A DNA stretch of 32,000 nucleotides, taken from Candidatus Lokiarchaeum ossiferum (GTDB lineage Archaea > Asgardarchaeota > Lokiarchaeia > Sigyniarchaeales > Promethearchaeaceae). Where the stretch lies: contig CP104013.1 in assembly GCA_025839675.1 (NCBI GenBank), positions 1,410,001-1,442,000 of the forward strand, read 5' to 3'. Position numbers and translations under genes: made by a program. Below, one piece after another: positions 3,416-19,673 of the stretch (position 1 is its first letter; every line of letters begins with the position of its first letter). Under the pieces are notes generated by a model that was not told where the DNA came from, ran no database searches, and saw only the letters and a list, made by a program, of their open reading frames with translations.

Positions 3416-3613
3416 TCAGTATAATGCTTAAAAGTTTTAGAATAGAAGTTCTAATACATTTTATAAAATAGTATAGACCCCATTCTCAGATTGTTTTAAA
3501 AATGAAAATACAATATTTGAAAAAATGAATTGAAAATTCGAAAAAAGTGAGCTTCTATTTTTAGACATTATACTTTTCAAGAGATTAAAAAACGATTATT
3601 CATTTTTTGTGAC

Positions 3614-5140
3614 ATGGAAGATTTTTGTTATGGAATAGATCATCTTACACCTGAAATAGCTCTTCAAATAGCTCGTAATGAAATAAGAGGTATATTAGCA
3701 GATAAAGCGAAAGAAAAAGTGCTTCACTGCTATAATGCAGTTCAAAAAATAGCACAAGGTGAACGACCAGTGTATTCTATCAATACAGGTTTTGGTAGTT
3801 TGTGTACCACCAAAATATCCAAAGAAGATGCAGGAACCCTTCAAGAAAATTTATTGAAATCTCATAGTGTTGGAATGGGAGATCCTATTGACGCAGAAAT
3901 TGCCAAACTTATGCTCATCCTTAAAGTACATGCGTTATGTCAAGGTTTCAGTGGTACTTCTTTAAAACTTATTGAACGTATTATTTGGCATATTGACAAT
4001 AATTATATCCCCAAAGTTCCAGAACAAGGTTCTGTCGGTGCCTCCGGAGATTTATGTCCTTTATCACATTTATTTATCCCTTTAATTGGTTTGGGAGAAG
4101 TTACCAATGATAATGGAAAAACATATATTCCAACGCAAACAGTTTTAACACAATATAACCTTACCCATTTTGCCTTAGGAGCCAAAGAAGGCTTAGCTTT
4201 AATCAACGGAACTCAATTTATGGCAGCTCATGGAATTAAAATTATCGAACGTTTACAAAACTGCCAAGATCATGCAGAAATAATTGCTGCTTTGAGTTTG
4301 GAAGGATATATGGGATCAAAATCACCCTTCGATAAGCGGCTCCATCAAGTTCGACCTCATCCAGGGGCACGGATTTCGGCAAAACGAATGTGGGCATTAT
4401 TAGAAAATTCTGAAATTCAAGTGGCCCATAAAGATTGTACTCGTGTGCAAGATCCATACAGTTTTCGGTGTATTCCCCAGATACATGGCGCAAGTCGTGA
4501 TGCTTTAGTCCATCTTAAAGAAATTATCACCCGTGAAATTAATTCAGTAACGGATAACCCTAATGTTTTTACGGAGGGAGATGAATCTATTGCAATTTCT
4601 GGAGGAGGTTTTCATGGAGAACCGATTGCACTTCCGATGGATTATGCCGGTTTAGCTGCGTCAGAATTAGGAAATATTGCAGATCGTCGAATTTATCTTC
4701 TTATGGGAGAAAAAGGTGAATATGGACTTCCTTTATATCTCATAAAGGGTTCCGGATTGAATTCTGGATTTATGATTACCCAGTACTGCTCAGCAGCATT
4801 AGTTAGTGAGAATAAATCTCTGTGTTATCCCGCGAGTGCAGATAGCATCCCCACAAGCAACGGAGTAGAGGATTTAGTCTCGATGGGATCGATTAGTGCC
4901 CGAAAAACTTTGAGGATCATCGATAATTTAGAAAAAATTCAAGGTGTGGAATTATTCTGCGCATGTCAAGCAATTGATTTTCGTAGACCCCTTAAATCCA
5001 GTCCAACTTTAGAAAAATGTTATCAATATGTCCGATCCAAGATACCTCATATTGCTGATGACGAAGTATTATCTGGATATATGAATTCTGCCACCAAAAT
5101 TATCCGTAGCAAGAAATTACTTACTTTTTTTAATATCTAA
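3614..5140 (+). CDS. hutH: Histidine ammonia-lyase
   Basis: 508-aa ORF. It carries the MIO-forming Ala-Ser-Gly motif in SVGASGDLCPLSHL, plus NTGFG and other conserved HAL/PAL family blocks along its whole length. Confidence 0.93.
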   Translation: MEDFCYGIDHLTPEIALQIARNEIRGILADKAKEKVLHCYNAVQKIAQGERPVYSINTGFGSLCTTKISKEDAGTLQENLLKSHSVGMGDPIDAEIAKLMLILKVHALCQGFSGTSLKLIERIIWHIDNNYIPKVPEQGSVGASGDLCPLSHLFIPLIGLGEVTNDNGKTYIPTQTVLTQYNLTHFALGAKEGLALINGTQFMAAHGIKIIERLQNCQDHAEIIAALSLEGYMGSKSPFDKRLHQVRPHPGARISAKRMWALLENSEIQVAHKDCTRVQDPYSFRCIPQIHGASRDALVHLKEIITREINSVTDNPNVFTEGDESIAISGGGFHGEPIALPMDYAGLAASELGNIADRRIYLLMGEKGEYGLPLYLIKGSGLNSGFMITQYCSAALVSENKSLCYPASADSIPTSNGVEDLVSMGSISARKTLRIIDNLEKIQGVELFCACQAIDFRRPLKSSPTLEKCYQYVRSKIPHIADDEVLSGYMNSATKIIRSKKLLTFFNI

Positions 5141-5160
5141 AAAACCTTAGGTAAAATGAA

Positions 5161-6420
5161 ATGACTCAAAAAACTTTGATTGGTCCATTTAAGCAAATAT
5201 TGACCATGCAAAATCTCCCTGTAAAGGGATCGATTAAAGATGAAGCTTTAGAAATCATTGAAAATGGAGCAATCTTAATAGAAGATGAAAAAATCCATAG
5301 TCTTTTGACTGAGGAACAATTCCAAACAGAACGAAAGAATTACAAAAAAAAACGTGGAGATAACATATTCTTTGAAATCACAAAGGATTCAATCTTAATT
5401 CCCGGGTTCATTGATTCACATACACATATGTGCTACGCTGGATCGCGAGCTGATGATTACGCTCGAAGAATAGCAGGTGAATCGTATCTTGAAATTGCAA
5501 AAAAAGGAGGAGGTATTTTAAGCACCGTTAAATGCACACGGGAAGCGACTAATAAGGAACTAATGCAATTATTGTTTGAACGCGGTTTGCATCATTTAAA
5601 ACGGGGAATTACAACATGTGAAGTCAAAAGTGGATATGGTCTTGATCTAGAAAATGAATTAAAGATGTTAAGAGTAATCAAACAAGCAAAGGAATCCAGA
5701 TATCTTATCCCCGATTTAGTATCTACGTGTTTAGCAGCTCATGTGAAACCGAAGGAATTTGAATCCCATGAAGACTATTTAGATTTTATTGTAAAAGAAA
5801 TCTTACCCAAAATTATAGAAGAGGGGCTTAGTAAACGTGTTGATATTTTCATTGAAGAAGGAGCTTTTGATTCCGAAATGTCATTAAAATTCTTAGAGCA
5901 AGCCAAAGCCTTAGGATTTGAAATTACTGTCCATGCAGATCAATTTTCAACAGGAGGCGCAAAAGTAGCTGCAAAAGTAGGGGCAATAAGTGCAGACCAT
6001 TTGGAAGCCAGTCAAGAAGAGGATATCATCGCAATGAAAGAAGGAAATGTAATTGCCACAGTCTTACCCGGAGCTTCAATGGGATTAGGTGTTGGATATG
6101 CTCCCGCCAGAAAAATTTTGGATAATGGTCTTTGTTTAGTAATTGCTTCCGATTGGAATCCCGGCTCAGCACCTATGGGAGATTTATTGATTCAAGCAGC
6201 AGTCCTAGGTGCCAATCAAAAATTGTCAATTGCAGAAACACTTTCAGCGATTACGAATCGTGCTGCTCTAGCATTGAATTTGAATGATCGTGGAGAACTT
6301 TCAGAAGGAAAACTCGCAGATATGCTAGCATTTCCATGTTCAAAATATCAAGAAATATTCTACAATCAAGGAATTTTACGCCCGAGTTTAATTTGGAAAC
6401 AAGGAACCCGGATAATTTAA
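5161..6420 (+). CDS. hutI: Imidazolonepropionase
   Basis: 419-aa ORF with the amidohydrolase metal motif GFIDSHTHMCYAGSR, plus VHADQ and ASDWNPGS blocks typical of HutI. It starts 20 nt after the hutH stop. Confidence 0.92.
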   Translation: MTQKTLIGPFKQILTMQNLPVKGSIKDEALEIIENGAILIEDEKIHSLLTEEQFQTERKNYKKKRGDNIFFEITKDSILIPGFIDSHTHMCYAGSRADDYARRIAGESYLEIAKKGGGILSTVKCTREATNKELMQLLFERGLHHLKRGITTCEVKSGYGLDLENELKMLRVIKQAKESRYLIPDLVSTCLAAHVKPKEFESHEDYLDFIVKEILPKIIEEGLSKRVDIFIEEGAFDSEMSLKFLEQAKALGFEITVHADQFSTGGAKVAAKVGAISADHLEASQEEDIIAMKEGNVIATVLPGASMGLGVGYAPARKILDNGLCLVIASDWNPGSAPMGDLLIQAAVLGANQKLSIAETLSAITNRAALALNLNDRGELSEGKLADMLAFPCSKYQEIFYNQGILRPSLIWKQGTRII

Positions 6421-6438
6421 AAAAAAGAGGGAATAATA

Positions 6439-8109
6439 ATGAAACAAGATATTGAGATAGCGCGAGCAGCAGAATCTAGACCCATCACCGAAATTGCTGC
6501 GAAGATGGGAATCCCCGAAGAAGCTTTAGAACCTTATGGGAAGGACAAGGCTAAAATTAGCTTAGATTTCTGTTTTAAATGCCAGAAGAAGCACAAACCA
6601 GGCAAACTCATTCTAGTCACCGCCACTAGCCCGACACCTGCTGGAGAAGGTAAAACCACAACCGCTATTGGATTAACCGAAGCATTAAATCGATTGAACA
6701 AGCAAGCTGCGGTATGCATTCGTGAACCTTCATTAGGTCCTGTTTTTGGAATCAAAGGAGGGGCAGCGGGAGGAGGATATTCACAAGTAATCCCTATGGA
6801 AGATATAAATCTCCATTTCACTGGAGATCTCCATGCAATATCATCTGCTCACAATATGTTAGCCGCAATTTTGAACAATGCTATTTATCGCCATAAAATT
6901 GATTTAGATCCAAAACGAATTTTGTGGAATCGTGTATTGGATGTAAATGATCGAGCTCTAAGGAATATCATTGTAGGATTAGGAGGACATACTGATGGAG
7001 TGTCGCATCAAAGTAGCTTTGATATAACTGCAGCATCTGAAATCATGGCAATTTTATGCCTTTCTAACAATATATCAGAGTTAAAAGAGAAAATTGGAAA
7101 TATTCTCTTAGGTTTTGATTATGCCGGTAACCCCGTCTATGTGCATGATTTAGGAGTAGAAGGATCAATCACCGTGCTACTTAAAGATGCAATTAAACCA
7201 AACTTAGTTCAAACCATGGAAAATAATCCTGCCTTTGTGCATGGAGGACCTTTTGCAAATATTGCCCAAGGATATAATACGATTATTGCCACCCAGATGG
7301 CTTTACATTCTAATGATTTCGTTGTGACCGAAGCAGGATTTGGATCCGATTTGGGGGCAGAAAAATTCTTTGATCTCGTATGCCCTTATGGAGGATTCAC
7401 ACCAGATTTAACGGTGATGGTTACTACCATCCGTGCGTTGAAAATGCATGGCGGACAATCACTAGATCGAATCACTTTGAAGAATACCGAAACTTTGGAA
7501 AAAGGATTGGTCAACTTAGGACGCCATTTAGAGAATACACGCAAATTTGGAGTCGACTGCGTTGTCGCTTTAAATAAAATCTCTTCGGATACAGACGATG
7601 AATTGCGGTTAGTTATCGATTATTGTAAAGAATTAGGTTTTGATGTGGCTCTATCCGAAGTATGGGAAAAGGGAGGAGAAGGTGGCGAAGAATTGGGGAA
7701 ATTAGTATTAAGCCATATAGAACAAAAAAATACAAGCTACCATAAATTATATGACTGGAATCAGTCGGTAGAAGAAAAAGTCAGGATTATTGCCAAGGAG
7801 ATATATCGGGCAGATGATGTTGAATTTCTGGAAGAGGCGATAGAAGATATCAAGTTTATTAATAAACTAAATTTAAGTAAACTCCCCATTTGCATTGCAA
7901 AAACACAAAAATCTTTCTCTGATAACCCTACACTAATGGGTGCACCAACCGGATTTACATTGAAGGTAAGCCGAGTATTAATTGCATCAGGAGCCGGATT
8001 TTTGATTCCAATTACAGGAAAAATGTTACGAATGCCCGGATTACCATTAAATCCTGCAGCCGAATCCATTGACATTGATTACGATGGTGATGTAGTCGGA
8101 CTATTCTGA
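6439..8109 (+). CDS. fhs: Formate--tetrahydrofolate ligase
   Basis: 556-aa ORF with the FTHFS nucleotide-binding signature TSPTPAGEGKTTTAIGL and family-typical blocks (VHGGPFANIAQG, VTEAGFGSDLGAEKF). It starts 18 nt after the hutI stop. Confidence 0.95.
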   Translation: MKQDIEIARAAESRPITEIAAKMGIPEEALEPYGKDKAKISLDFCFKCQKKHKPGKLILVTATSPTPAGEGKTTTAIGLTEALNRLNKQAAVCIREPSLGPVFGIKGGAAGGGYSQVIPMEDINLHFTGDLHAISSAHNMLAAILNNAIYRHKIDLDPKRILWNRVLDVNDRALRNIIVGLGGHTDGVSHQSSFDITAASEIMAILCLSNNISELKEKIGNILLGFDYAGNPVYVHDLGVEGSITVLLKDAIKPNLVQTMENNPAFVHGGPFANIAQGYNTIIATQMALHSNDFVVTEAGFGSDLGAEKFFDLVCPYGGFTPDLTVMVTTIRALKMHGGQSLDRITLKNTETLEKGLVNLGRHLENTRKFGVDCVVALNKISSDTDDELRLVIDYCKELGFDVALSEVWEKGGEGGEELGKLVLSHIEQKNTSYHKLYDWNQSVEEKVRIIAKEIYRADDVEFLEEAIEDIKFINKLNLSKLPICIAKTQKSFSDNPTLMGAPTGFTLKVSRVLIASGAGFLIPITGKMLRMPGLPLNPAAESIDIDYDGDVVGLF

Positions 8110-8232: not shown

Positions 8233-9033
8233 ATGCAACGACATCGATATTCCTTTTTTGGACAAAAAGTTGGACTATTATTGGATTCATCGGAATGGAC
8301 CGATGCCAGTTTATATCTCCGCTTTTTAAAAAAACGACCTGAAGGGTATTGGGAAAAACCCTCAAAAAAGGAAGGCAAAAATATCAAGCTTAATCTTCTT
8401 GAAATGATAGCAATACTTGAATTATTATCTGACAACCAAACAACATCAAAAAAATGGAGTACAGTGCATCGATTTGGGCAAGAACAAACCCCTATTACCT
8501 TTGAAAAACGCAATGACGCCTTAACAATTTCAGTACCAGGATATCAAAAATACATGAAATTTCCAGAAACGAAACTGCTCACTGATCTCCTTCAACATAT
8601 TTATAACGAAAAAATTATTTACGCCACCAAAAGTGAAATGGTGAAATCTACTAGTAATCCCCATATGGAAGAGATCAAAGCACCATCACGAGAATCTATC
8701 CCCATTCAAGAGAATAAGATATATTCAAACACTGCATCCACTAACTTCTTTGATCAAAAAATGAAATCATCTAAACTTGAATTTAATTCATCAACATCTC
8801 AAGATCCAAACGCTTGGATTTCGACTTTGGAACAGAAAAATGATTGTTATTTAGTGCCCGGAGAAATTCAAACCCGAAGTGAAAAAGCGATCGCCTTTCA
8901 GATAGCAGGACATAAATCGACTTGGGTACCCCTTTCCTGCATTAGTCAAGTCATAGATCAAGATAATTTAAAGGGATTGTGGATAAAACAATGGTTCATA
9001 AATAAAAAAGTGGAAGAGATTTTTGCGAATTAA
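8233..9033 (+). CDS. Hypothetical protein; the N-terminal ~130 aa may be a tandem beta-beta-beta-beta-alpha (Whirly/PUR-like) nucleic-acid-binding fold
   Basis: 266-aa ORF, preferred over the overlapping 104-aa minus-strand ORF. The fold suggestion comes only from by-eye pattern similarity (see findings). Confidence 0.6.
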   Translation: MQRHRYSFFGQKVGLLLDSSEWTDASLYLRFLKKRPEGYWEKPSKKEGKNIKLNLLEMIAILELLSDNQTTSKKWSTVHRFGQEQTPITFEKRNDALTISVPGYQKYMKFPETKLLTDLLQHIYNEKIIYATKSEMVKSTSNPHMEEIKAPSRESIPIQENKIYSNTASTNFFDQKMKSSKLEFNSSTSQDPNAWISTLEQKNDCYLVPGEIQTRSEKAIAFQIAGHKSTWVPLSCISQVIDQDNLKGLWIKQWFINKKVEEIFAN

Positions 9034-9092: not shown

Positions 9093-11162
9093 TTAATTAC
9101 GTAGAATTGAAAATTGATAGTCAGCGAGACCTTCGGTGCAGCTCACAATCATTAAAGTATGATCACCAGTTGCATAATTTGCTAAGTCTATAGCTTCGAG
9201 GGTTTCTTCCGACAAGTCATCAAGAACTAATGTCATGATATTGGAATATAATTCGACTCCATCAACAATATCAACTTTAATCAAGGTTACAATGAAATCA
9301 GTATTGGGTTTAGCAGGAGCGGTAAAAATGACAAGATCATCAGCATCATCAATAATTACTCCATTTATTGCAATATTATCTACATACCACCCTTCTTCTT
9401 CAGTCCCCCAATCAGTCATATAACGGAAGGCTAGCATAACTTCACCGGAATATGCGGAAAGATCGAATTTCATAGTGATCCATCCATCACTTTCACCATC
9501 CAAACCAGGTAGTTCTTCTTTGATTGCGGGATAGCCGTCAGGATGAATTTCATCAGTAGTATAATCATTTGCTAACGAAGTCCAAGTTTCACCGCCATCA
9601 GTCGAAATTTGTACAAAACCAAAATCCCATTCATGTTCGATGATGTACATAGTCTCAAAATTCAACACCGGATCTACAAATCCAGTAAGATCAAATTCAG
9701 CAGTCAATGCCAAATCATATTCTGGAATAGAAGATGTGGAATACCATTCTAGATCACCGTCACCATCTTGATCCACTTGAATCCATGTTGGTTTATCTGC
9801 TACATCATCCCCATTAAATTCAAATGAAGGAAGGAATGATTCTTTCAAATTATTGAATTTTATATAGTCAGAACCATAGGATCCTAATCGAGTGAACCCA
9901 GTTCTGTCATTTAAATAAGATTTAGTTTCTCCAAAATCAGATCCGAAATAATCGGTAACTGATGGTTGCATAACATTATAAATTCGTGCAGGATTTTCTT
10001 CAAAGTAAGCTCCGATGTCTATAAATATATAATTATATTTTTCATTTCCTGCATAATCAGAATGAAGTAAATTCGCGATCCTCCAGTCATGGTAAATTTC
10101 AGTAAAGGTTTCAGTATAGCCAAAATGGTTTAGGGCATTATTTAAACCTAAGATTCCAGGAATACCAGTTTTAACAAAATAACTCAGAAACTCGGCTCCA
10201 TAATGATCACCTAAATAGATCGACCATAATAAAGAACATCCATAGTCAGCTAATATATTAATATCCCCTTGATCACCCCATTCAGTTAATGAATTATCTG
10301 GTGTGGCCAAATAGGCTTCAATATCACCCCATGAAACTCCATACCCACATAAAGGTTCAGCATACATTGAGCATCCTTCATTCATGAAGGTATCATCATC
10401 AGGATTCCAGTCATCATGAATTAAATGTTGGTATTCATGAGCTACGGTTCCCATGTACATTTCAGCTCGATTATCCCAATCTGCACTATCAATTGAAATA
10501 ATGTTGCGATCAAACGCATCTTCAAAGACTCCCCAATAAAATCCAACAATGTAATAAGGATAGCTATCATCATAGTAGGCTTCATCCCTTATATTTGAGA
10601 TTAAAATAACATCACGCCCAGCGGGATCTACATAGGACTCATTAAGTTCAGCAAGTGTTCCATCATGAAATTCTGGAACTCCAAAATAGCTTGAAACTTT
10701 AGGATAGATATTTCCTTCAAATTCATCCATCATATAATCTACATGATCATCGGTGATAATTGGAGTATCCCTATTATCTGGAAAACTCATATCAACTTGG
10801 ACCCAAATTTCAGTGTGTTCACCAATGGCTCGCAGTTCAAACGCGTCTACAAAAATTCCGTCAGGCACATCAGCACTATAATCATCCAAACAATACCAAT
10901 TTACAATAGCTCCAATAGGATAATAATCTTCACCATCTAGGGTAGAAATTGCGTCAGCCACATTTATTTCCGGACTTGACACAGAAGGAAGATCAGACAT
11001 TTTTGTCTCCCGGAGACGTGGTCCAATATCCATAGGTTGTTTCATGATTGTTTCATCAATAGTTGTCGCAGATGAGGTCATCGTTAGTGCCAAGATAAAC
11101 GAACCTATAAACAACATAGGTAATATCAAGCACATCATAACTTTTCTTTTCATTTTTATCAC
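9093..11162 (-). CDS. Secreted zinc metalloprotease (MA-clan gluzincin; InhA/M6- or M30-like)
   Basis: 689-aa ORF with an N-terminal signal-like segment (KVMMCLILPMLFIGSFILALTMTSSA). The HExxH motif with a downstream Glu lies in VAHEYQHLIHDDWNPDDDTFMNEGCSMYAE. There is an Asp-box-like STDGGETW in the C-terminal beta-rich region. The exact MEROPS family is not resolvable by eye. Confidence 0.75.
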   Translation of the reverse strand: MIKMKRKVMMCLILPMLFIGSFILALTMTSSATTIDETIMKQPMDIGPRLRETKMSDLPSVSSPEINVADAISTLDGEDYYPIGAIVNWYCLDDYSADVPDGIFVDAFELRAIGEHTEIWVQVDMSFPDNRDTPIITDDHVDYMMDEFEGNIYPKVSSYFGVPEFHDGTLAELNESYVDPAGRDVILISNIRDEAYYDDSYPYYIVGFYWGVFEDAFDRNIISIDSADWDNRAEMYMGTVAHEYQHLIHDDWNPDDDTFMNEGCSMYAEPLCGYGVSWGDIEAYLATPDNSLTEWGDQGDINILADYGCSLLWSIYLGDHYGAEFLSYFVKTGIPGILGLNNALNHFGYTETFTEIYHDWRIANLLHSDYAGNEKYNYIFIDIGAYFEENPARIYNVMQPSVTDYFGSDFGETKSYLNDRTGFTRLGSYGSDYIKFNNLKESFLPSFEFNGDDVADKPTWIQVDQDGDGDLEWYSTSSIPEYDLALTAEFDLTGFVDPVLNFETMYIIEHEWDFGFVQISTDGGETWTSLANDYTTDEIHPDGYPAIKEELPGLDGESDGWITMKFDLSAYSGEVMLAFRYMTDWGTEEEGWYVDNIAINGVIIDDADDLVIFTAPAKPNTDFIVTLIKVDIVDGVELYSNIMTLVLDDLSEETLEAIDLANYATGDHTLMIVSCTEGLADYQFSILRN

Positions 11163-11371
11163 TAATTTCCTAAATCAATTGTTATTAATGTTTCACACAA
11201 CTGACGATTCTAGCATATCTCCGTCAATAATATTTAAAAAGTGTCGGATACTTTTCCCCATTACAAACGCGAAAATCAAAAGAATCACCCGTATCAACTT
11301 GTTTTTAGAAATTTAATTTTAAAATTAGGAAAAAACATTATAAATTTGACATTTAGTAAACTTCTGTCAAA

Positions 11372-12742
11372 TTATGCTAAAAAACCGGAGTAATCAAGAT
11401 AGAATTTCAATGCAGTATATGTGAATATTAATCCAGCAATTAGTAATCCCATAGCTATAATGGGGCCAATATACATCTTCATAATTTCAGATTTCGTAGG
11501 AGCGATTTCCACTAAACCAGATGATTCCGAAATACCTTGAACAAGAGCCTTATCCCCTTCGATAATGTGTTTTGGAGGCTGGGTTGCAATTGCCACCTCC
11601 CGCTTTTTCACATCAGCAGCCGTCCCTAGTAAAGTGATGGCAAATCCCATAAAAGATATAGAGATACTTAGTTTTGATCGTTCTTGATTTAAACCAATGA
11701 CAATGAATTGTTCTTTATCATCAGTTTTGGTATTGACCATTTGAGAAAACTCAAATAAATCATTTTCTAGTTTTGTGGTTAAATTTTGAATCTCTTTATC
11801 GGACGATTGCCAAGCCAATTCAATTTCTTGTAATGATGCATTCCACTGATTATACAATAGTGATCGTAACATATATTCATCGTTACTAATAGTTTCCGTT
11901 CGAGAATCGTGTTCTTCCCAAATGGAGGCCCATCGGGCTTCAAAATATAATTCAGCCATGTTCCATAGCTTTGAAATATTAAATTGAAGAATATAGAAAT
12001 TTCCAAATAATTCTTCAGAGTGATCGGTATAAGTCTTATTGATAATATCAAAAGTATGAGGATACGTGAAATCTAAAGCACTTGGAAATACATCTGTTAA
12101 ATTTTGTTGTTCTATGATTCCCACAGTTAAATTCTCATAGTTTGAACTATTAGTATAAAAGATTTCTCTAACTTGTGGTGTGGTTCGAATTTCACTAAAT
12201 TTGTAAAGGGAATTGGCATAGAATAAACTATCATAAATTTCCCTTCGGAGAGTGGCGTTAGCTTCGGTTATATTCATATTATTTGCACTAACCATTTCTT
12301 GTAAATATATATCCAATGATCGCACTTCAACTTCTAAAATCTGACGATATTGGCTACTTATATAGTCACAATCACCAATCATTTCCACTACATAATCATT
12401 CATTTTATCATATTCATCAATTTCTTCCGAAAGAATTTGTTCCGAATAATCCATTGCATCCTTAGTTTCATCGCTTATCCGATCCTCTTCCTTACTCAAC
12501 CAAGTTGCCATATTACTTTCTAAAGTCCGAATTTCTTGGGCATTACTGGTCACCAAATCATCAATTTCATTCATATTTGAAATCCGTTTTTGAGAAATAT
12601 TGAGTTGATCGATAGTGCGTAATTGATATATAGCAGTTTGATTTTCTTCCAATTCATTTGCCATCACGCTGTTCAATGCAGATATACCAGGAAGTATAGC
12701 GGAGGAAATAACCATAATTAATATTTTGTTTACCGATTTCAT
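11372..12742 (-). CDS. Membrane protein with a large helical extracytoplasmic domain (unknown function, sensor-like topology)
   Basis: 456-aa ORF with an N-terminal signal/anchor (ILIMVISSAILPGISALNSVMA) and a helix-prone E/N/Q-rich region of about 330 aa with many N-x-S/T sequons. Two C-terminal TM segments follow (ISISFMGFAITLLGTAA and YIGPIIAMGLLIAGLIFTYTAL). Confidence 0.6.
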   Translation of the reverse strand: MKSVNKILIMVISSAILPGISALNSVMANELEENQTAIYQLRTIDQLNISQKRISNMNEIDDLVTSNAQEIRTLESNMATWLSKEEDRISDETKDAMDYSEQILSEEIDEYDKMNDYVVEMIGDCDYISSQYRQILEVEVRSLDIYLQEMVSANNMNITEANATLRREIYDSLFYANSLYKFSEIRTTPQVREIFYTNSSNYENLTVGIIEQQNLTDVFPSALDFTYPHTFDIINKTYTDHSEELFGNFYILQFNISKLWNMAELYFEARWASIWEEHDSRTETISNDEYMLRSLLYNQWNASLQEIELAWQSSDKEIQNLTTKLENDLFEFSQMVNTKTDDKEQFIVIGLNQERSKLSISISFMGFAITLLGTAADVKKREVAIATQPPKHIIEGDKALVQGISESSGLVEIAPTKSEIMKMYIGPIIAMGLLIAGLIFTYTALKFYLDYSGFLA

Positions 12743-12985
12743 ATTCTAACCATCATTACAACTTTGTATATGAATCTATAAATTTGAAACCTAAAGGAAT
12801 TGTGACTATCTTTCTAGATCTTCGATGCAACAAAACTCCAAAAATTAAGAAATAAAAGCAAAACGTAGAATTAAAGCATTTAAAAACTCTTAAATTCCAG
12901 AATTTTACAACTAGAAAATGACTAGGAACTATAAAACTTATTACTAATTTTCACTCAGACAAATTATTTTAAGCCCATATAATCA

Positions 12986-13708
12986 TCAAATAGGCAAGTA
13001 AATGCTGAATTCTGCACCCATTCCTTCTTGAGAATCGATGTATATATACCCATCATGTTTTTGAATGATTTCATAGGCAGTAGCTAATCCTAATCCATTC
13101 CCATCTGCTTTTGTAGTGAAATATGGCGTAAAAATATCATTCAATATAGATTCGGGAATACCTGGCCCATTATCTTTGAATGTTAACTTTATCCAACGCG
13201 TTATGTTAGATTTGGCATTGTGAGGTTTAAAATTATTTAATTCTCTAATTGAAACTTTGATGATACCTGATTCAGTGATTGCTTGACGTGCATTTAGTAC
13301 GATATTTTGAACGACTTGACTAATCTGGTTTGGATCACATGAAATCTCCGAAATTTTTTGAGGAATTGAGTAAATAACCTTAATTCTGGATCCTGATAGA
13401 ATAAAATTTGTTGAATCTAAAACGATGTCTTCAATTGAGGCATTTTTCTTGATTGGATCACCTCCCTTTGAAAACTGCAAGAGTTGATTTGTTAATGTTG
13501 AAGCTTTATTGGCCGCGAATAAAGCATTTTCGAGATCATTTTTCAAATCTGAAGGTTGATCTAAATCAAGGAGATTCATTGACAAAGTTCCTGTAATCAT
13601 TGTCAGAATATTATTTAAATCGTGGGCAATTCCACCAACCAGCAGTGAAAGGGATTTATCCGATATATCCCGACTATTATGACATTCAGAAACCATGGGA
13701 TTCAACAT
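12986..13708 (-). CDS. Histidine kinase catalytic core (HisKA + HATPase_c) with no sensor or TM domain
   Basis: 240-aa ORF with H-box GGIAHDLNNILTMI, N-box VVQNIVLNARQA, G1 box FKDNGPGIP and G2 box GNGLGLA. An SD-like AAGGAGAG lies 7-14 nt upstream of the ATG, so the short N-terminus looks genuine. Confidence 0.88.
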   Translation of the reverse strand: MLNPMVSECHNSRDISDKSLSLLVGGIAHDLNNILTMITGTLSMNLLDLDQPSDLKNDLENALFAANKASTLTNQLLQFSKGGDPIKKNASIEDIVLDSTNFILSGSRIKVIYSIPQKISEISCDPNQISQVVQNIVLNARQAITESGIIKVSIRELNNFKPHNAKSNITRWIKLTFKDNGPGIPESILNDIFTPYFTTKADGNGLGLATAYEIIQKHDGYIYIDSQEGMGAEFSIYLPI

Positions 13709-14060
13709 AACCTTCTCTCCTTACTAAAAAAAAAAAATTTTGATTTTTGGGGGAAAAAAAAGGAAAATTAGATTTCTAACAGGTGTGTTATTTGTTTCTT
13801 CCTTGACTAAAAATATATTCCACCAACTATTTATTTATTTGGAATTTTCTTTCATACCAACTTCATTGTTTTTTATTCTATCTAAAGCATTATAATGAAT
13901 ATTTTAGAGGTCTTTCATACTCTATATTATTTTTTACAAAATAATCATTATTATTGAAGTGAATTGGGGCCATTGATTGGTATATTAATTTCTTAATTTA
14001 ATTTAATTAATTCAAAATTGAATTTTTTGTCTGGCATATTATGCAAATTTTTCCAATTTA

Positions 14061-14068
14061 TTTATAAA
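14061..14068 (+). promoter_or_regulatory. Candidate archaeal TATA box for the repeat-protein gene
   Basis: TTTATAAA lies 53 nt upstream of the ATG at 14121, and an SD-like AAGGT lies at 14107-14111. AT-rich context makes chance matches likely. Confidence 0.25.
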
Positions 14069-14120
14069 GATTTAAATTATTCTCCTTCTCTAGATCAATA
14101 ATCATTTAAGGTTGTTTATT

Positions 14121-14729
14121 ATGATGCAAAAAAAAAACAATATGATAAATCTATGTGCTCTCATTTCAATTGGAATTTTGGCATATTTCACCGTTTTGGC
14201 AGGGAAAATCTTATTTTTGAATTCAATCGAAGAAAATACGAACTTATCAACTATTATTATAGATTCTCAATTGAAACACGAAACTTTATTACACGATTTT
14301 ATAACCATGTTTAATAAAGAAACAGAAAGACCGGGAACACCTCAATTCATCCAGGATTTCATAAATATGTTTAATAAAGATAAAGAAGGACCGGGAACAC
14401 CTCAGTTCATCCGGGATTTCATAACTATGTTTAATAAAGATAAAGAAGGACCGGGAACACCTCAATTCATCCAAGATTTCATAACCATGTTCAATAAAGA
14501 TAAAGAAGGACCGGGAACACCTCAGTTCATCCGGGATTTCATAACTATGTTTAATAAAGATAAAGAAGGACCGGGAACACCTCAATTCATCCAAGATTTC
14601 ATAACCATGTTCAATAAAGATAAAGAAGGACCGGGAACACCTCAATTCATCCACGATTTTATAACCATGTTTAATAAAGGTAAAGAAGGACCGGGAACAC
14701 CTCAATTCATAAAACTAATAGTTTCTTAA
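14121..14729 (+). CDS. Signal-anchored tandem-repeat protein (7 x 20-aa module [H/Q/R]DFI[T/N]MFNK[D/E/G][K/T]E[G/R]PGTPQFI)
   Basis: The ORF is open from TTG 14112; I prefer ATG 14121, which has AAGGT 9-13 nt upstream. The N-terminus is KK followed by a hydrophobic segment (MINLCALISIGILAYFTVLAGKILFL). The rest is almost entirely seven in-frame copies of a 60-nt unit, and an oligo-T run follows the stop. Confidence 0.8.
   Translation: MMQKKNNMINLCALISIGILAYFTVLAGKILFLNSIEENTNLSTIIIDSQLKHETLLHDFITMFNKETERPGTPQFIQDFINMFNKDKEGPGTPQFIRDFITMFNKDKEGPGTPQFIQDFITMFNKDKEGPGTPQFIRDFITMFNKDKEGPGTPQFIQDFITMFNKDKEGPGTPQFIHDFITMFNKGKEGPGTPQFIKLIVS
14292..14711. repeat. Tandem repeat, period exactly 60 bp, about 7 copies; 14401-14520 is identical to 14521-14640
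   Basis: Read directly from the sequence: successive 60-nt blocks align without indels. Blocks 14401-14460 and 14521-14580 are identical, as are 14461-14520 and 14581-14640. Confidence 0.97.
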
Positions 14730-14737
14730 TTATATCA

Positions 14738-14747
14738 TTTTTTTTTT
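14738..14747 (+). terminator. Oligo-T (T10) tract after the repeat-protein gene
   Basis: A T10 run starts 9 nt after the stop codon at 14727-14729. Confidence 0.45.
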
Positions 14748-14808
14748 ATGGGAAAAATATTTAGGAATACAAATAGTTAAACAAAATAGAATTATTGGTT
14801 TGAGATCA

Positions 14809-15942
14809 ATGATAAAACGACCAAAATTACGAAATTTGAAACAAGAAGAACTTAAAATACTTATGGAATTTCAGGAAAACCCATTTATCACTTTTGAGGA
14901 ATTGGCTCAGAAGACTAAAATATCAAAATCAGTGGTCTTTAGGACGATTAAGAAATTCGAAGATCCTTCCTTAAAACCAGCATATCTAACAATTGTAGCT
15001 ATTCCCAATTTAAGGGCTTTGAATTTTGAAAACTTTGAAGTATTTGTAGAAGCAGAACAAACCCACCAAATAAAGTCAATTATTACATTATGTGAAGAAC
15101 ATCCTTATATTTGGTACTATGCTCGCTGTTATGGAAAAATAAATGGATTTTCAATCCAATATCGTACACCCAAGGGAACGAGGCACCAAATTCAAGAACT
15201 TCTTGATATTCTAAAAACAAAAAATCTTATTCAGAATTATTATGTATTAAATTTTGAAGAAAATGTAATTTATACCCACCCTCAAGTAAAAAATTGGGAT
15301 ATGGAAACATTATCTTGGAATTTTGACTGGAATGAATGGTTTTTAAAAAAAATAGAAAAAATCCCAATTCAACAGCAGCAAAAAAATAGAGAAAAACGAC
15401 TATTAACTAATTTAAAGCAGATAGATTTACTCATATTAAAAGAATTATTAAGAAATTCCCGAAGAAAGAATATAGAAATGATTCAATGTATGAAAACGAA
15501 TGGTTGGGAAATTTCTCAACAGCAATTTAGTAAAAAAGCTAATTATTTAAAAGAAGTCTTTATTCTTGACTATAGAGCCGAAATTCATCCCGAAACATTA
15601 GATATTCTGACTCCTGTTTTGCTATGGGGAAGAGGTGAACAAGAAGAAATCCTAAAATTGGCAGTGAAAATAAAACAATTTCCAATCCCTTTTATTTCAA
15701 CTTTTAAATATAACAAGACGTTAGTTTATTGGTATTTGCACCTATCTACATTTCAGTTAGCAGAATTATTATTAAACTTACGACCAATTTTAAGTGAAAT
15801 ACACTTTTTCTTTATTGATTTCCCACATTCTGAAAAATTTTCCTTGGAAACATCCAATTTTAATGAAAATCAGCATGATTGGATTCAAACGGACCAGTTT
15901 ATAATTTATGATGTGTTGGAAAAAATATTAAAATCTCGCTAA
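14809..15942 (+). CDS. Putative transcriptional regulator with two Lrp/AsnC-like winged-HTH halves
   Basis: The ORF is open from TTG 14800, with the first ATG at 14809. The first wHTH-like segment is EELKILMEFQENPFITFEELAQKTKISKSVVFRTIKKF. A second lies about 200 aa later (IDLLILKELLRNSRRKNIEMIQCM...). Each is followed by a domain of about 100 aa, suggesting internal duplication. Confidence 0.6.
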   Translation: MIKRPKLRNLKQEELKILMEFQENPFITFEELAQKTKISKSVVFRTIKKFEDPSLKPAYLTIVAIPNLRALNFENFEVFVEAEQTHQIKSIITLCEEHPYIWYYARCYGKINGFSIQYRTPKGTRHQIQELLDILKTKNLIQNYYVLNFEENVIYTHPQVKNWDMETLSWNFDWNEWFLKKIEKIPIQQQQKNREKRLLTNLKQIDLLILKELLRNSRRKNIEMIQCMKTNGWEISQQQFSKKANYLKEVFILDYRAEIHPETLDILTPVLLWGRGEQEEILKLAVKIKQFPIPFISTFKYNKTLVYWYLHLSTFQLAELLLNLRPILSEIHFFFIDFPHSEKFSLETSNFNENQHDWIQTDQFIIYDVLEKILKSR

Positions 15943-16105
15943 AGAGTTTTTTCTTATCTAAAAAGGGCATTCCGATTGAAAATTTACGCTTAATTAGAAA
16001 AAATTTCTCAAAACTGCAAAAATGGACAAATTTATAACTTTTTAAGAAGAAATTTTAACTTGTAATTATATTCCATTAACAATATGTTTGGAAAAGAAGG
16101 GAAAA

Positions 16106-16180
16106 TGGTGCGCCCACCGGTGATTGAAACCGGATCTCCGGGTTGGAAACCCGAAATGCTAACCGTTACACTATAGGCGC
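16106..16180 (-). tRNA. tRNA-Gly (anticodon UCC), CCA encoded
   Basis: The minus-strand sequence GCGCCTATAGTGTAACGGTTAGCATTTCGGGTTTCCAACCCGGAGATCCGGTTTCAATCACCGGTGGGCGCACCA was folded by hand. The 7-bp acceptor stem is GCGCCTA/TGGGCGC. The anticodon stem TCGGG/CCCGG carries loop TTTCCAA (anticodon TCC). The T stem CCGGT/ACCGG carries loop TTCAATC. The discriminator is A, followed by CCA. Confidence 0.9.
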
Positions 16181-17008
16181 ACAAATGATTTGTCTAATAA
16201 TAACAAGAAGTTAAGTGAATAATGAGTTTTAAAATTTTTGATTCTAACTTTGAATTGACATTTTTAACTTATTATATTGTGGATAGAAAGATGCTTATCA
16301 AACTCAAATTACGATGAAGAATCAAAAAAATATGATGGAAACCAACTTTTAAGCTTTTCAAATCAAATCAAAATTCTTTGTTCCAACCATGAAGATATAT
16401 CTTGAAAAAAGAATATTTGCAAATAATCCCATAAAAGAAAACAATCAAATTGGATCGAGTGAAGTTTGGAGGTTATACAATCATATTGCAACCATTTAAG
16501 GGTCTTATTGTGCTCATTGTTTTCAAAAGCCGATTATATTACGCAAAATAATCAGTATATCGCTTTATAAAGAAAGCAAATAAAAAATTCGAAATGAAAA
16601 ACCTCATTCATGAAACAGTTAGATTAAATAAAATAATCTATTCCGGAGATTCAAAGCCCTTCGATATGTTAATCCACAAAATTTTTCAGAACCTAAAATC
16701 TGAGGAGATTTCCTTTCCAATGAAAAATTAATGTTTGATGCCCATCAAGAGCGCCACATTTTTTTGTCTTCACTCAAATATATTTTCCCACACGTATAAG
16801 GAAATAAAAATGGAAATTAAAACCAAAGGTTTCAGTATAAGAAGTAAAAATATATTTAAACATGATAAAGGAAAATATTTCACTGAAATTAGTCCACAAC
16901 TAAGAAAATTTCATTAATCGGCTAAATTATGTCGGTATCGTCACATGACTAGTAATTTATAGGGATCAAAAACAATGTTGGAGTACGGATTATATTAAGG
17001 TCTTAAAA

Positions 17009-18799
17009 ATGAAGAATAAAACAAAGAATATCCTAATTATCGTATCTTTTATTGTGGCTTTTGGATTAGCAAATTTCAATGAGATTCATAGTTTTCAAGA
17101 GAATATATCAGCAAAAATCTCCGATGGAAAAGAACCACAGACATCTACGACTAACAAACCCCGTTCCAGTTATGTGGTAGTGCCATTAACAATTAATGTT
17201 GTGGAAGGTACCAATCTAACTAAGGCAGAAGTAGAAGAACGAGTCAAGAAAATGAATGAGATATATAATTGCGAGGTGGTTATATTCGTGTGGAATGGAA
17301 CAATCAATACAGTGCCTGATCCAGAGGGAAATGGGGATGGAAAAATTGATTATAATGCGACCCACAGGACCAAGGTGAGGAGTGATGCAGCTAAGAAATC
17401 AGGAGGAAAAGGAGTTAGCATTACAGTGACCAATTCCCTAGGTGATAATAATACCAACGGAATGTGTATTGTGGGAGGTGCTCATTCAGCAATTGTAAGG
17501 AAAGGGACAGATGGAACCACTTGGGCACATGAAGTTCAACATGCCCTTGGGCAAAGTCACGGACAATCACAACCCGCAGGGGAAGACTTAGACGGTGATG
17601 GTGATAAAACCGATGATCGCGGTTGGGATATCGACGGCGATGGGAATGTGACCAAAAAAGATCAAGGGTATAATTTATGGGGTCGGAGAAGTGATCGAAC
17701 GGGAAACAATATGACAACTGCAGGCCATGATGCAATTTATGGGAATGCTTCTGCACTCCCAGGAGCAAGAGTTAAAACCCGTCCTGCCAAGCCAGCAACT
17801 ACAAAAACGGACGGAATCACACCCTTGAAAGGAGGAATATCACCGGGTAAACGAAATGAATCATTAACTCCAGAGAAAAAAAGTTCTAATATCATCCAAG
17901 GAGGTTTTTCAGTCAATTATACAGATCCAAAAATGACGTTATGCTTACAACTTGCCGATATGCCAGCAGGGATAGTGAGTTTTAATTTAATTATTGATGC
18001 GGATCCAAATCATGGTAATCCACTTGATGGAGCAGATATCTGGATAGATTTATTTTGTAATATGGGGGTATTTGAATTGACACCTCACACATGGGGTGAA
18101 AGTGATTGGATAGATCTCCCTCCACTACCGTTCCTTCCCAGCCCCGGAATGGATACCATCAATCTGAACAATATCACTGGATCAGGATTGGTTGATTCCT
18201 TTTTTGATGTTTTTGTCGAAGTGGACATTCCCGAGCCTGCTATAGTAGATCCATTAAGATTTAGTGAAGAAACAAAATTTTGGTTCGAGTCTTGGTCTGA
18301 GATGGATTACTCAGATCGGACCGCAAATTCAACAGTAGACATGCGAGATATTCCGGATGAAACAATTACAGTAAGTAATGAACTTACAACAGCAGGAGGT
18401 TATTTAACAGTCAATGGCACAAATTTTAGTCCCGAGTCAACAGTAACTTTATATTTTGATGGGGAATCTATCGGTACCGTGCCTACAGACACTCAAGGAT
18501 TCTTCACCCATGATATTTTAGTTATTCGGGAATTGTCCAAGGAAAATGTTATTCTCACCGCCATGGATGCGCAAGGAAAAGGAGATGGAATTTACATTGA
18601 TATCGAAGGATCAGGAACAAAGACAACAAGTAGCACTGACACAACCTCCAGCAGCTCAACATCAACTCAGTCAGATGATACTGCAGACGTCGAGAGATTA
18701 ATTATTCCAGGATATTCCCTTTTCTGGACTGGTGCAATTTCAATCTTTTCTTGCCTGTTCTTACTGAGAAAACGATCATTTTGGATTCAATTGAAGTAG
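17009..18799 (+). CDS. Cell-surface metzincin-like zinc metalloprotease with calcium-binding-type DxDGDG repeats and a PGF-CTERM-like anchor
   Basis: 596-aa ORF with an N-terminal signal/anchor (NILIIVSFIVAFGLANF). It has an exact HExxHxxGxxH motif (HEVQHALGQSH) and DLDGDGDKTDD / DIDGDGNVTKKD repeats. A Ser/Thr-rich linker (TKTTSSTDTTSSSSTSTQS) is followed by PGYSLFWTGAISIFSCLFLLRKR near the C-terminus. Confidence 0.75.
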   Translation: MKNKTKNILIIVSFIVAFGLANFNEIHSFQENISAKISDGKEPQTSTTNKPRSSYVVVPLTINVVEGTNLTKAEVEERVKKMNEIYNCEVVIFVWNGTINTVPDPEGNGDGKIDYNATHRTKVRSDAAKKSGGKGVSITVTNSLGDNNTNGMCIVGGAHSAIVRKGTDGTTWAHEVQHALGQSHGQSQPAGEDLDGDGDKTDDRGWDIDGDGNVTKKDQGYNLWGRRSDRTGNNMTTAGHDAIYGNASALPGARVKTRPAKPATTKTDGITPLKGGISPGKRNESLTPEKKSSNIIQGGFSVNYTDPKMTLCLQLADMPAGIVSFNLIIDADPNHGNPLDGADIWIDLFCNMGVFELTPHTWGESDWIDLPPLPFLPSPGMDTINLNNITGSGLVDSFFDVFVEVDIPEPAIVDPLRFSEETKFWFESWSEMDYSDRTANSTVDMRDIPDETITVSNELTTAGGYLTVNGTNFSPESTVTLYFDGESIGTVPTDTQGFFTHDILVIRELSKENVILTAMDAQGKGDGIYIDIEGSGTKTTSSTDTTSSSSTSTQSDDTADVERLIIPGYSLFWTGAISIFSCLFLLRKRSFWIQLK

Positions 18800-18896: not shown

Positions 18897-19673
18897 TTAA
18901 TAATAGAGAAAATATTGGACAGGAACGAGAGTAAACATGATATAAAGCCCAATTATACATAGATAGAATGAAAAAAAAAATAATATAAACCCCCAATTAT
19001 TTGAATGAATGGAGAAAAGGGATATTTTGCTCTTGGATCTGAGGCGAGGGCAAAAAAAACCAGAGGAAAGATAATAGGCAAGATACTCTTCAGGGAAGAG
19101 CCGAAAAAGGATTTTTTCTTCGAGTTTTGAAAAAACCACAGTTGTAAACAAAATAAGAATAAAGGATGCAAGATCTCCGATGCGAATTCCCCAATCGGAA
19201 GTCCCAAAATAGTGCAGTATTGAAAATTCTGGAGGAACATATAGGGCAAATGGAAAAATCATCAGAAGAATTCCTAAATTCTGCGGATGACGTATGTATT
19301 TATAAATACCTGTCCTTACCAAACCGACTTTTTTCTGTTTTTGAATACTAAAATAGAGTATCGAAAAAACAAAAAGACCGAATCCTATTCCAAATATTAG
19401 AAATTCAAAGAAAATAAATTGATTTGTAAACAAACCGCAATCAAGGTACGCATTTAGCCAAGATACAAACAAATTTGTACCAATCAAACTTGGATCAATA
19501 AAATACCAAGAAATACGCGTGAAATAACCTAAGGAAAAAATTGGAACAAAAATGAGAAACATGGGCCATAAAATACCGCCAAAAATTACAAGATAGGAGC
19601 CAAGTTGGGAAAAAAATTTAGCAATAGGTAAAATTATTCGGATTTTTTTAGAGGAATCAATTTGGGATTTCAT
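18897..19673 (-). CDS. Isoprenylcysteine carboxyl methyltransferase (ICMT/PEMT) family membrane methyltransferase
   Basis: 258-aa polytopic membrane ORF carrying the family motif TGIYKYIRHPQNLGILL (G-x-Y-x-x-x-RHP-x-x-x-G). Confidence 0.65.
   Translation of the reverse strand: MKSQIDSSKKIRIILPIAKFFSQLGSYLVIFGGILWPMFLIFVPIFSLGYFTRISWYFIDPSLIGTNLFVSWLNAYLDCGLFTNQFIFFEFLIFGIGFGLFVFSILYFSIQKQKKVGLVRTGIYKYIRHPQNLGILLMIFPFALYVPPEFSILHYFGTSDWGIRIGDLASFILILFTTVVFSKLEEKILFRLFPEEYLAYYLSSGFFCPRLRSKSKISLFSIHSNNWGFILFFFSFYLCIIGLYIMFTLVPVQYFLYY

Follow-up and report, generated by a model that had tools for sequence, protein, structure and literature searches.

The window analysed here is a stretch of 32 000 nt from the genome of Candidatus Lokiarchaeum ossiferum (contig CP104013.1, positions 1 410 001–1 442 000, forward strand), and coordinates count from its first letter. 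Within it, a gene for a tandem-repeat protein of 202 aa (14121–14729, plus strand; an alternative TTG start lies at 14112) is followed by a gene for a 377-aa protein with two fused Lrp/AsnC-type modules (14809–15942, plus), and the two are divergent from a gene for a soluble histidine kinase of 240 aa (12986–13708, minus), with a spacer of 412 bp (13709–14120) between. These three genes, here called the module, are the subject of this study. Farther along the minus strand lie genes for a 456-aa membrane protein (11372–12742) and a secreted metalloprotease (9093–11162), and on the other side a surface-anchored protein of 596 aa with a metzincin motif is encoded at 17009–18799 (plus). An earlier note, made from the sequence alone, proposed that the five genes from 9093 to 15942 form a cassette for peptide production and sensing, as two oppositely transcribed arms. 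All open reading frames (ORFs) that it named are present, at its coordinates, in the ORF list of the window.

The repeat is real: Tandem Repeats Finder reports a 60-nt array of 6.9 copies with 92% matches at 14295–14710 (plus). The encoded protein has a hydrophobic signal segment (residues 7–36), a pro-region of ~25 aa, seven units of the form DFITMFNKDKEGPGTPQFI[QRHK], and the tail KLIVS. Its copies differ almost solely at unit position 20 (Q, R, H or K) and in the linker of the first unit. The L. ossiferum reference (CP163304.1), a near-identical strain whose membrane protein is 99%, regulator 100% and other proteins 90–100% identical to those of the window, has five units (162 aa) rather than seven.

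Family members from the relatives described below share this layout of basic N-terminus, hydrophobic segment of ~20 residues, pro-region of 20–30 residues, which is not conserved, and units. Small residues occur at plausible signal-peptidase sites (e.g. AVSAYA before Y in L009 and L012), and the proteins stop 4–8 hydrophobic residues past the last P-Q. Signal peptides at all loci were called from hydropathy and sequence only. Copies per gene number 1–11, counts that are unreliable in metagenome-assembled genomes (MAGs) because contigs end inside the repeat gene, and the unit period is 17–21 aa, with copies homogenised within each gene. The cross-species plan of the unit is [DE]-phi-I-x-phi-phi-x-K-[DE]-x-x-G-x-G-[TS]-P-[QE]-x-[IL]-x, in which the linker K...G.G.P(Q/E) is kept and the hydrophobic stretch differs by species. 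The protein has no further domain, and no Pfam family scores above its cut-off. We take it to be a putative Sec-type exported protein made up solely of signal peptide, short pro-region and a series of near-identical ~20-residue units.

The AlphaFold2 (AF2) model of the repeat protein has no confident fold (predicted local distance difference test, pLDDT, 42) and consists of helices of 12–13 residues and loops of 7–9. The helix part is significantly amphipathic in six of 11 unit variants (hydrophobic moment, muH, 0.46–0.59; at most 2% of shuffles reach these values) and borderline in the L027 unit (muH 0.44, reached by 6% of shuffles); it is not significantly so in the units of MK-D1, of L016 and of the second cassettes described below.

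Database searches return little. A word-index homology search with the repeat protein gave no homologue and an exact look-up of the 202-aa product no match, while HMMER, run exhaustively on 1.84 billion representatives, found a single true relative (P0015, unit DLITTLCKEENGTGTPQLIQ) together with spurious eukaryote-like repeat ORFs. The cause appears to be assembly: public short-read contigs end inside the repeat gene in L001, L004, L010, L013, L027, L028 and L029, and since short-read assemblies systematically break in such genes, protein databases miss the family almost entirely.

The second gene of the pair matches HTH_24 (2.5e-9), HTH_AsnC (1.6e-6) and also MarR in Pfam, and an Lrp model of NCBIfam over residues 193–266. 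Its AF2 model (pLDDT 66) shows a helix-turn-helix (HTH) followed by a beta-alpha-beta-beta-alpha-beta fold, in this order twice. A family profile run against the PDB hit a full-length Pyrococcus Lrp/AsnC protein (2dbb, E 5e-5, residues 7–142). The top Foldseek match is NirDL (4ch7, E 2.5e-9, TM-score 0.54 normalised by query length, 13% identity), with more than 25 Lrp/AsnC structures at E <1e-3 and AhbA/B among the other matches. These results confirm the two Lrp/AsnC-like halves. As in Lrp/AsnC proteins, an AsnC-type HTH precedes a RAM domain, which is the small-ligand-binding fold of that family; instead of a single module of ~150 aa there are two, fused in 12 of 12 aligned homologues. The product is presumed to be a ligand-responsive transcription factor and the partner of the repeat protein. 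A PADLOC scan of the window for anti-phage systems returned only weak winged-HTH (wHTH) matches (Csa3/CARF), on this gene, and a defence reading was dropped. A scan of viral contigs returned nothing, so the module shows no sign of carriage by mobile elements.

The kinase belongs to the HisKA family. Pfam finds HisKA (4e-9) and HATPase_c (3e-22), the H-box (HDLNN) and the N, G1 (DNGPGI), F and G2 (GNGLGL) boxes are all readable, and NCBIfam likens it to the cores of VirA-, AtoS- and CckA-type proteins. It has nothing besides these two domains and no hydrophobic segment, in keeping with its earlier description as sensor-less and soluble, and the window ORFs scanned contain no Response_reg match, as the earlier note had also stated. 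In archaea 62% of kinases are cytoplasmic, most response regulators are receiver (REC)-only proteins that act via protein–protein contact, and some REC-only genes lie opposite a divergent wHTH gene (PMC5847659). Both the soluble kinase and the MK-D1 REC-only protein described below fit such known archaeal two-component systems.

To see what travels together, we compared the neighbourhoods of homologues of the 456-aa membrane protein and of the double-Lrp regulator. A search of genome contigs with the regulator-alignment profile returned MK-D1 alone, and a first metagenome scan returned nothing. A signal-peptide repeat ORF lies directly upstream of every regulator homologue with upstream DNA available (the window, L006, L004+L010, L027/L028, L029, L009, L012/L013, MK-D1 (L014) and L016). 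Positional homologues of the repeat protein exist in eight other lineages. At the loci that show both gene ends (window, L009, L012, L014, L016), the repeat gene lies 30–104 nt upstream of the regulator. The units of L027/L028 and L029 are DVIAFLFKESDGTGSPELIQ and DFISMFLKDSEGPGTPQMIR, and L016 has a two-unit protein (..IIQKESGGEGGPQSILI) followed by the regulator and then by a paralogous regulator.

The full layout, with kinase (minus) opposite repeat protein (plus) and regulator (plus), recurs in L004+L010, L009 and L012/L013. L004 and L010 are contigs of one sample with equal coverage, split by the assembly inside the repeat; here the membrane protein is 84% identical to that of the window, the whole block is syntenic, the protease is duplicated and the repeat unit is EVITALYKEENGTGTPQFIR. 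The least conserved genes of the block are the three of the module (repeat ~50%, regulator 66%, kinase 75% identity, against 78–97% for the others). L009 (a JGI contig) and L012/L013 (two GenBank MAGs) have regulators 47–48% identical to that of the window and flanking genes entirely unlike its own; the unit is ESIFNIVKQEGGTGSPQSII in 11 copies in L009 and TGVFNLIKGDAGTTGPQSLL in at least three in L012/L013. Kinase orthologues occupy the same divergent position in L004 (75% identity) and in L009 and L012 (47–49% identity at 93% coverage). Directly downstream, L009 and L012 have a second cassette, in which a signal-peptide protein with three copies of a 17-aa unit, IGILEKTAGGGGGLPSL or SIGFFEKIAVGGGGLPS, is followed by a paralogue of the regulator (32–33% identical).

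In Promethearchaeum syntrophicum MK-D1 (L014) the regulator (QEE16626.1, 43% identical) is preceded by a 128-aa signal-peptide protein with 3.5 copies of the unit DYLILIQKEDNGGGGPQSVPE. Encoded on the divergent side here are a stand-alone receiver (QEE16624; Pfam 5e-23), a protein of 210 aa and a kinase of 1061 aa with PAS-GAF-PAS-HisKA-HATPase architecture. A two-component gene is thus divergent from the pair in five of the six Lokiarchaeia lineages with visible upstream DNA. More distant regulators also have small exported-looking neighbours. Upstream of P0014 (22% identical) and of its relatives stands a signal-peptide protein of 66–69 aa ending ...GDGGGSPGPGMM.SPS.GDGGGSPGPG, and upstream of the L025 regulator (35% identical to P0014) a 62-aa signal-peptide ORF ending ...EGDPVEGGGFPH; these ORFs of 62–69 aa hold one or two copies of [DE]-GGG-x-P.

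The conserved entity in Lokiarchaeia (Promethearchaeia) is therefore one or more two-component genes divergent from an exported repeat protein and its downstream double-Lrp regulator, since outside Lokiarchaeum the module occurs without the proteases and the membrane protein. The earlier note had suggested looking for co-occurrence in relatives. Repeat protein, regulator and kinase do co-occur there; the protease, the membrane protein and the metzincin, which it had counted or considered as parts of the system, are syntenic within Lokiarchaeum alone and missing from the other modules.

The spacer is AT-rich as described (77.7% A+T) and nearly identical in the L. ossiferum reference; in L004, the nearest different species, short blocks alone are conserved. 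Among the longest blocks shared by the window and L004 in the part near the repeat gene is a TATA-like one, TTTATAAAG[A/G]TTTAAATT (14057–14078, plus), ~50 nt upstream of the repeat-gene ATG, which is probably the promoter of that gene; here and throughout we infer promoters and terminators. A run of ten T (14738–14747, plus), starting 9 nt past the repeat-gene stop codon, resembles an archaeal terminator and is a putative one; T-runs stand at the same spot in MK-D1 (T12) and L009 (T6). Given this run, the regulator may depend on low-level read-through or on a promoter of its own. On the opposite strand, T-runs and TATA-like boxes occur in the two intergenic gaps of the minus arm (243 and 209 nt), so the two arms, which had been presented as gene strings, are probably not operons.

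The perfect 7+7 palindrome AATTCAAAATTGAATT, formerly placed at 13999–14014, actually lies 10 nt farther on, at 14009–14024, and we judge it not meaningful. Chance alone predicts 1.4 perfect 7+7 inverted repeats (loop of at most 6 nt) in a spacer of this composition, 64% of shuffles contain one or more, and this one is missing from the aligned spacer of L004. As an operator it is rejected, being misplaced, expected by chance and not conserved in that species. The spacers of L009 (8581–9080) and L012 (2986–3473) are 88% identical, too close for footprinting to be informative; they share a G+C-richer block (AATTTTCGGGC.AGATGTTC.TGTAGCGC). At their kinase/spacer junction these two loci also have a small ORF of 57–60 aa (...ITSR[RK]KYEFGWQP; L009 8398–8580 and L012 2812–2985, both minus) that is not found in the window.

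We tentatively favour the reading in which the array serves as a multi-copy precursor or effector, with its cognate ligand-type regulator encoded next to it. The pair is kept while its surroundings change, it duplicates and co-diverges, copy number varies freely (1–11), the repeat protein lacks any other domain, the two proteins evolve fast, and the RAM domains of the regulator are of a small-ligand type. In this scheme the signal peptide would be removed and the array then cut in or near the Gly-rich K-[DE]-x-x-G-x-G-x-P-[QE] linkers, which would yield, in many copies, a single species-specific and mostly amphipathic peptide of ~15–20 residues, e.g. ...TPQFIQDFITMFNK..., acting extracellularly as a signal or a membrane-active effector. 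The double-Lrp protein would be the cognate ligand-gated transcription factor that controls array expression from the conserved TATA promoter. A second input may come from the two-component kinase, via a receiver encoded elsewhere in the genome, or next door in MK-D1, and the neighbouring secreted metalloproteases in Lokiarchaeum would be plausible but dispensable processing enzymes. If the RAM domains respond to the peptide, whole or in part, the circuit may be a quorum-sensing loop.

Several points weigh against this reading. Cleavage, export, import and peptide binding are all predictions. The array has no known cleavage motif such as a dibasic site, and the conserved module includes no oligopeptide importer or membrane receptor. 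The kinase of the window has no sensor or transmembrane domain, and the window ORFs scanned have no receiver domain. T-runs separate the repeat gene from the regulator in the window, MK-D1 and L009, and Lrp-type regulators often adjoin ordinary target genes. The ligand domains of the regulator are not strongly faster-evolving than the rest (identities of 0.63 for HTH1, 0.56 for RAM1, 0.48 for HTH2 and 0.51 for RAM2), and a fast-evolving ligand domain was accordingly rejected, these values differing only mildly. Sampling is thin, with ~8 Lokiarchaeia lineages and many short contigs that end within the repeat, and homology of the small P0014 and L025 ORFs to the Lokiarchaeal arrays is at most plausible. 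Finally, the conserved residues correspond to helix caps (N-cap box S/T-P-Q/E, C-cap K-[DE]-x-x-G), so that a structural account fits the unit equally.

That structural account, nearly as likely as the precursor reading, is that the array stays intact: an exported amphipathic-helix repeat protein with helices of ~14–16 residues and Gly/Pro turns, under local control by the double-Lrp regulator and the two-component genes, that binds membranes, vesicles, hydrophobic surfaces or a partner cell in the manner of apolipoproteins, surfactants or matrix proteins, with no peptide signal. The modelled helices of 12–13 residues and loops of 7–9 suit it, as do hydrophobic moments of 0.44–0.59 in seven of 11 unit variants, the capping residues that the conserved positions match, and the lack of a protease, importer or receptor in the conserved module; near-identical units in variable number are typical of surface proteins. 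It accounts poorly for members with one or two units or a mature part of ~40 aa (L016, the L015 group, L025), which could hardly be structural, and for the units of MK-D1, L016 and the second cassettes, in which amphipathicity is not significant. The protein also lacks an anchor or other domain, and the co-diverged tandem pairs, with both partners evolving fast, point to specificity pairing. Synteny by descent without function, the repeat ORF being a fast-evolving low-complexity orphan, is improbable. The repeat protein is indeed an orphan outside Lokiarchaeia, and the sampled Lokiarchaeia are all related, so that shared ancestry contributes to the common layout; yet the pair or trio survives between wholly different flanks in the window, L009, L012, L014 and L016, the pair has been duplicated as one unit, the two-component partner in MK-D1 occupies the same position though its type differs, and the unit plan and signal peptide persist at regulator identities of 43–48%.

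We regard as slightly less probable still the five-gene cassette of the earlier note, in which the protease would process the precursor, the 456-aa protein would sense the product and signal to the kinase, and the regulator would deliver the output. In its favour, the window, the L. ossiferum reference and L004+L010 all keep the five genes side by side, and both proteases have export signals. Elsewhere the arrangement dissolves: no HExxH protein or 456-aa homologue lies near the module in L009, L012/L013, L014 or L016, and in L007/L008 the membrane protein has no adjacent kinase or protease. The gaps within the minus arm, with their T-runs and TATA-like boxes, and the lack of a receiver domain in the scanned window ORFs also speak against it. 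It is highly improbable that the double-Lrp protein is an enzyme or peptide-binding scaffold of AhbA/B–NirDL type and not a transcription factor. NirDL is its best full-length structural match, and AhbA/B match too, but at 13% identity the NirDL match reflects the shared fused architecture, and Pfam sees HTH_24, AsnC-type HTH and MarR. A sirohaem decarboxylase would combine the fold with a haem or d1 context and a signature; no haem or d1 biosynthesis genes lie nearby, and no sirohaem-decarboxylase family scores above threshold. Least credible of all is a known fold for the repeat protein, either a YopM-type leucine-rich repeat (LRR) of 20 residues or an EF-hand-like Ca2+-binding array. Phmmer against PDB sequences gave YopM at 1.1e-5 and calmodulin at 3.2e-5, Pfam gave EF-hand_7 at E 1.1e-4, and the loop FNKDKEGPGT recalls FDKDGDGT of calmodulin. 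The per-domain E for calmodulin is 0.014–0.03, however, and EF-hand_7 reaches 22.9 bits under a cut-off of 30. We attribute these weak YopM and calmodulin matches to the shared 20-residue period and the string F-x-K-D-x-[DE]-G-x-G-T. EF-hand identity is rejected because loop position 8 is Pro or Gly instead of hydrophobic and position 12 is not Glu. YopM/IpaH identity is rejected because the Asn of LxxLxLxxN is N only in the window and Y, C, F, V or I in relatives, and the AF2 helices also disfavour an LRR.

A bolder form of the precursor reading, which we hold to be unlikely, is that the module is the first archaeal system of peptide cell–cell signalling, running from a multi-copy propeptide through species-specific peptides to a fused double-Lrp receptor. 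Sensing of the peptides would follow their uptake or run via the two-component partner, and the [DE]-GGG-x-P peptide/regulator pairs of other archaea would be simpler relatives. To our knowledge no peptide-based cell–cell communication system is established in Archaea. Asgard archaea form obligate syntrophic consortia, with protrusions that reach toward partner cells, and little is known of how they sense or address neighbours. The module occurs in L. ossiferum and in P. syntrophicum MK-D1, the two Asgard species in culture, and is thus a concrete, experimentally accessible candidate. On a conservative reading, it comprises a new family of exported repeat proteins and a new family of fused double-Lrp regulators with a fixed genetic partner.

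Several neighbours deserve a record. The genus-level protease (9093–11162, minus) has a hydrophobic N-terminal segment, HEYQH (residue 242)...NEG and an InhA-like_MAM match (1.1e-23), which upholds its description as a signal-peptide protease. It thus resembles Immune inhibitor A (M6)-like metallopeptidases and, with no catalytic-domain family above cut-off, is at most a candidate member of M6 proper. L004 has tandem InhA-like paralogues (3341–5314 and 5726–7783, plus) 47% and 83% identical to it. The 456-aa protein, likewise a genus-level neighbour, has hydrophobic segments at residues 4–27, 358–378 and 420–447, agreeing with the predicted signal or anchor and two C-terminal transmembrane helices; it has no family match and only four homologues. 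In L007/L008 its homologue (66–67% identical) sits between a penicillin amidase and a 266-aa protein, and at L007 2–1372 (minus) it is divergent from the penicillin-amidase-family (Ntn-hydrolase) gene (Pfam 2e-90) instead of a kinase; this family includes acyl-homoserine-lactone acylases. The 266-aa protein (8233–9033, plus, in the window) has no family match and adjoins the 456-aa protein in the window, L004 and L007 (68–80% identity), and the two may form a pair of their own, independent of the module.

The 596-aa protein, also outside the module, contains HEVQHALGQSH and has hydrophobic segments at both termini, as expected for the surface-anchored metzincin that had been described; no Pfam family matches. 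Its C-terminus (Ser/Thr-rich linker, PGY, hydrophobic segment, RKR) resembles a PGF-CTERM/archaeosortase signal, and it has a weak match to a PGS-type Ig-like domain (NCBIfam 2e-8, below cut-off). A multi-pass membrane protein at 18897–19673 (minus) is weakly like isoprenylcysteine carboxyl (ICMT) and phospholipid (PEMT) methyltransferases, all scores being below cut-off (Pfam ICMT 3.5e-3, PEMT 1.9e-3; NCBIfam 2.6e-4); the repeat protein has no CaaX cysteine, and we therefore propose no link between the two. In a Rfam search of the spacer and of the gap downstream of the regulator, the only known RNA was a tRNA: tRNA-Gly(UCC) at 16106–16180 (minus), in the ORF-free gap 15943–17008 (Rfam 58.8 bits; also ARAGORN). 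The surrounding 299-nt block is 87% identical in L010, where a GPP34/GOLPH3-like gene (1832–2596), absent from the window and the L. ossiferum reference, lies in the tRNA gap. Toward the other end of the window, a string resembling histidine utilisation (3614–8109, plus) encodes an aromatic amino-acid (histidine) ammonia-lyase, an amidohydrolase and a formate–tetrahydrofolate ligase, preceded on the opposite strand by a MacB/FtsX-type ABC transporter (173–2142) and a 401-aa protein without a family match. In MK-D1, the 210-aa protein between receiver and PAS kinase (L014 7920–8552, minus) has a weakly folliculin/longin-like N-terminus (Pfam 5.7e-5) and a C-terminal helix that looks by eye like a HisKA H-box without its histidine (IRGEVNTILGFCDLI).

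We found no description of the module in the literature searched, and the nearest known systems share parts of it. Lrp/AsnC (feast/famine) proteins are likewise ligand-responsive and often regulate neighbouring genes, and each half of the regulator has the AsnC-type HTH and RAM domain of Pyrococcus PH0061 (2dbb) and FL11/PH1519 (2cyy, 2e1c). The regulator differs in carrying two such modules in one 377-aa chain, as a covalent pseudo-dimer, at 13–20% identity to solved members. NirDL and AhbA–AhbB (4ch7, 4czd) are the only solved proteins that share a fused or paired double Lrp/AsnC architecture, but they are haem-biosynthesis enzymes, whereas the regulator is 13% identical, has no pathway genes around it and matches no corresponding Pfam family. 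Eukaryotic multi-copy precursors (MFalpha1, TRH, FMRFamide and fungal Kex2-processed ones) have a signal peptide, a pro-region, tandem units and conserved spacers. The repeat protein likewise has a signal peptide, a pro-region and tandem units in variable number; unlike them it has no dibasic Kex2/furin sites and no homology, and implies no secretory-pathway convertase.

The Agr, ComCDE and plantaricin systems resemble the module in setting a precursor gene beside a histidine kinase and a transcription regulator, and extracellular maturation is proposed for the module too. Its kinase, however, is soluble and not a membrane sensor, and neither a receiver/LytTR regulator nor an AgrB- or C39-type processing exporter is encoded in the window. 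A response regulator with DNA-binding output is likewise lacking in the window, and the receiver of MK-D1 is REC-only.

The closest likeness in logic is to RRNPP(A) systems (Rap-Phr, PlcR-PapR, Rgg-SHP and AimR-AimP of Bacillota and phages), in which the gene for a propeptide with a Sec signal lies beside that for a cytoplasmic regulator (PMC11343458; PMC10075063), as the repeat gene adjoins the regulator gene here. Some of these propeptides are multi-copy and protease-released, and the cassettes duplicate and co-diverge; in Rap-Phr, tandemly duplicated pheromone propeptides are cut by extracellular proteases (PMC11343458). Against RRNPP(A), the module has an archaeal host, a conserved two-component neighbour and units of ~20 aa in up to 11 copies instead of pheromones of 5–10 aa, and the window holds no oligopeptide (Opp) transporter. 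In place of a tetratricopeptide-repeat (TPR) receptor, for which Pfam, the PDB profile and Foldseek gave no match, all three point to an Lrp/AsnC protein (HTH plus RAM, twice). The module is thus outside RRNPP, having no TPR receptor, and outside Agr/Com, having no membrane kinase, DNA-binding response regulator or processing exporter. It is either a regulator-coupled cassette for an exported peptide or effector, or peptide signalling built from unrelated parts; if the latter is true, it reproduces the logic of RRNPP and Rap-Phr with wholly unrelated components.

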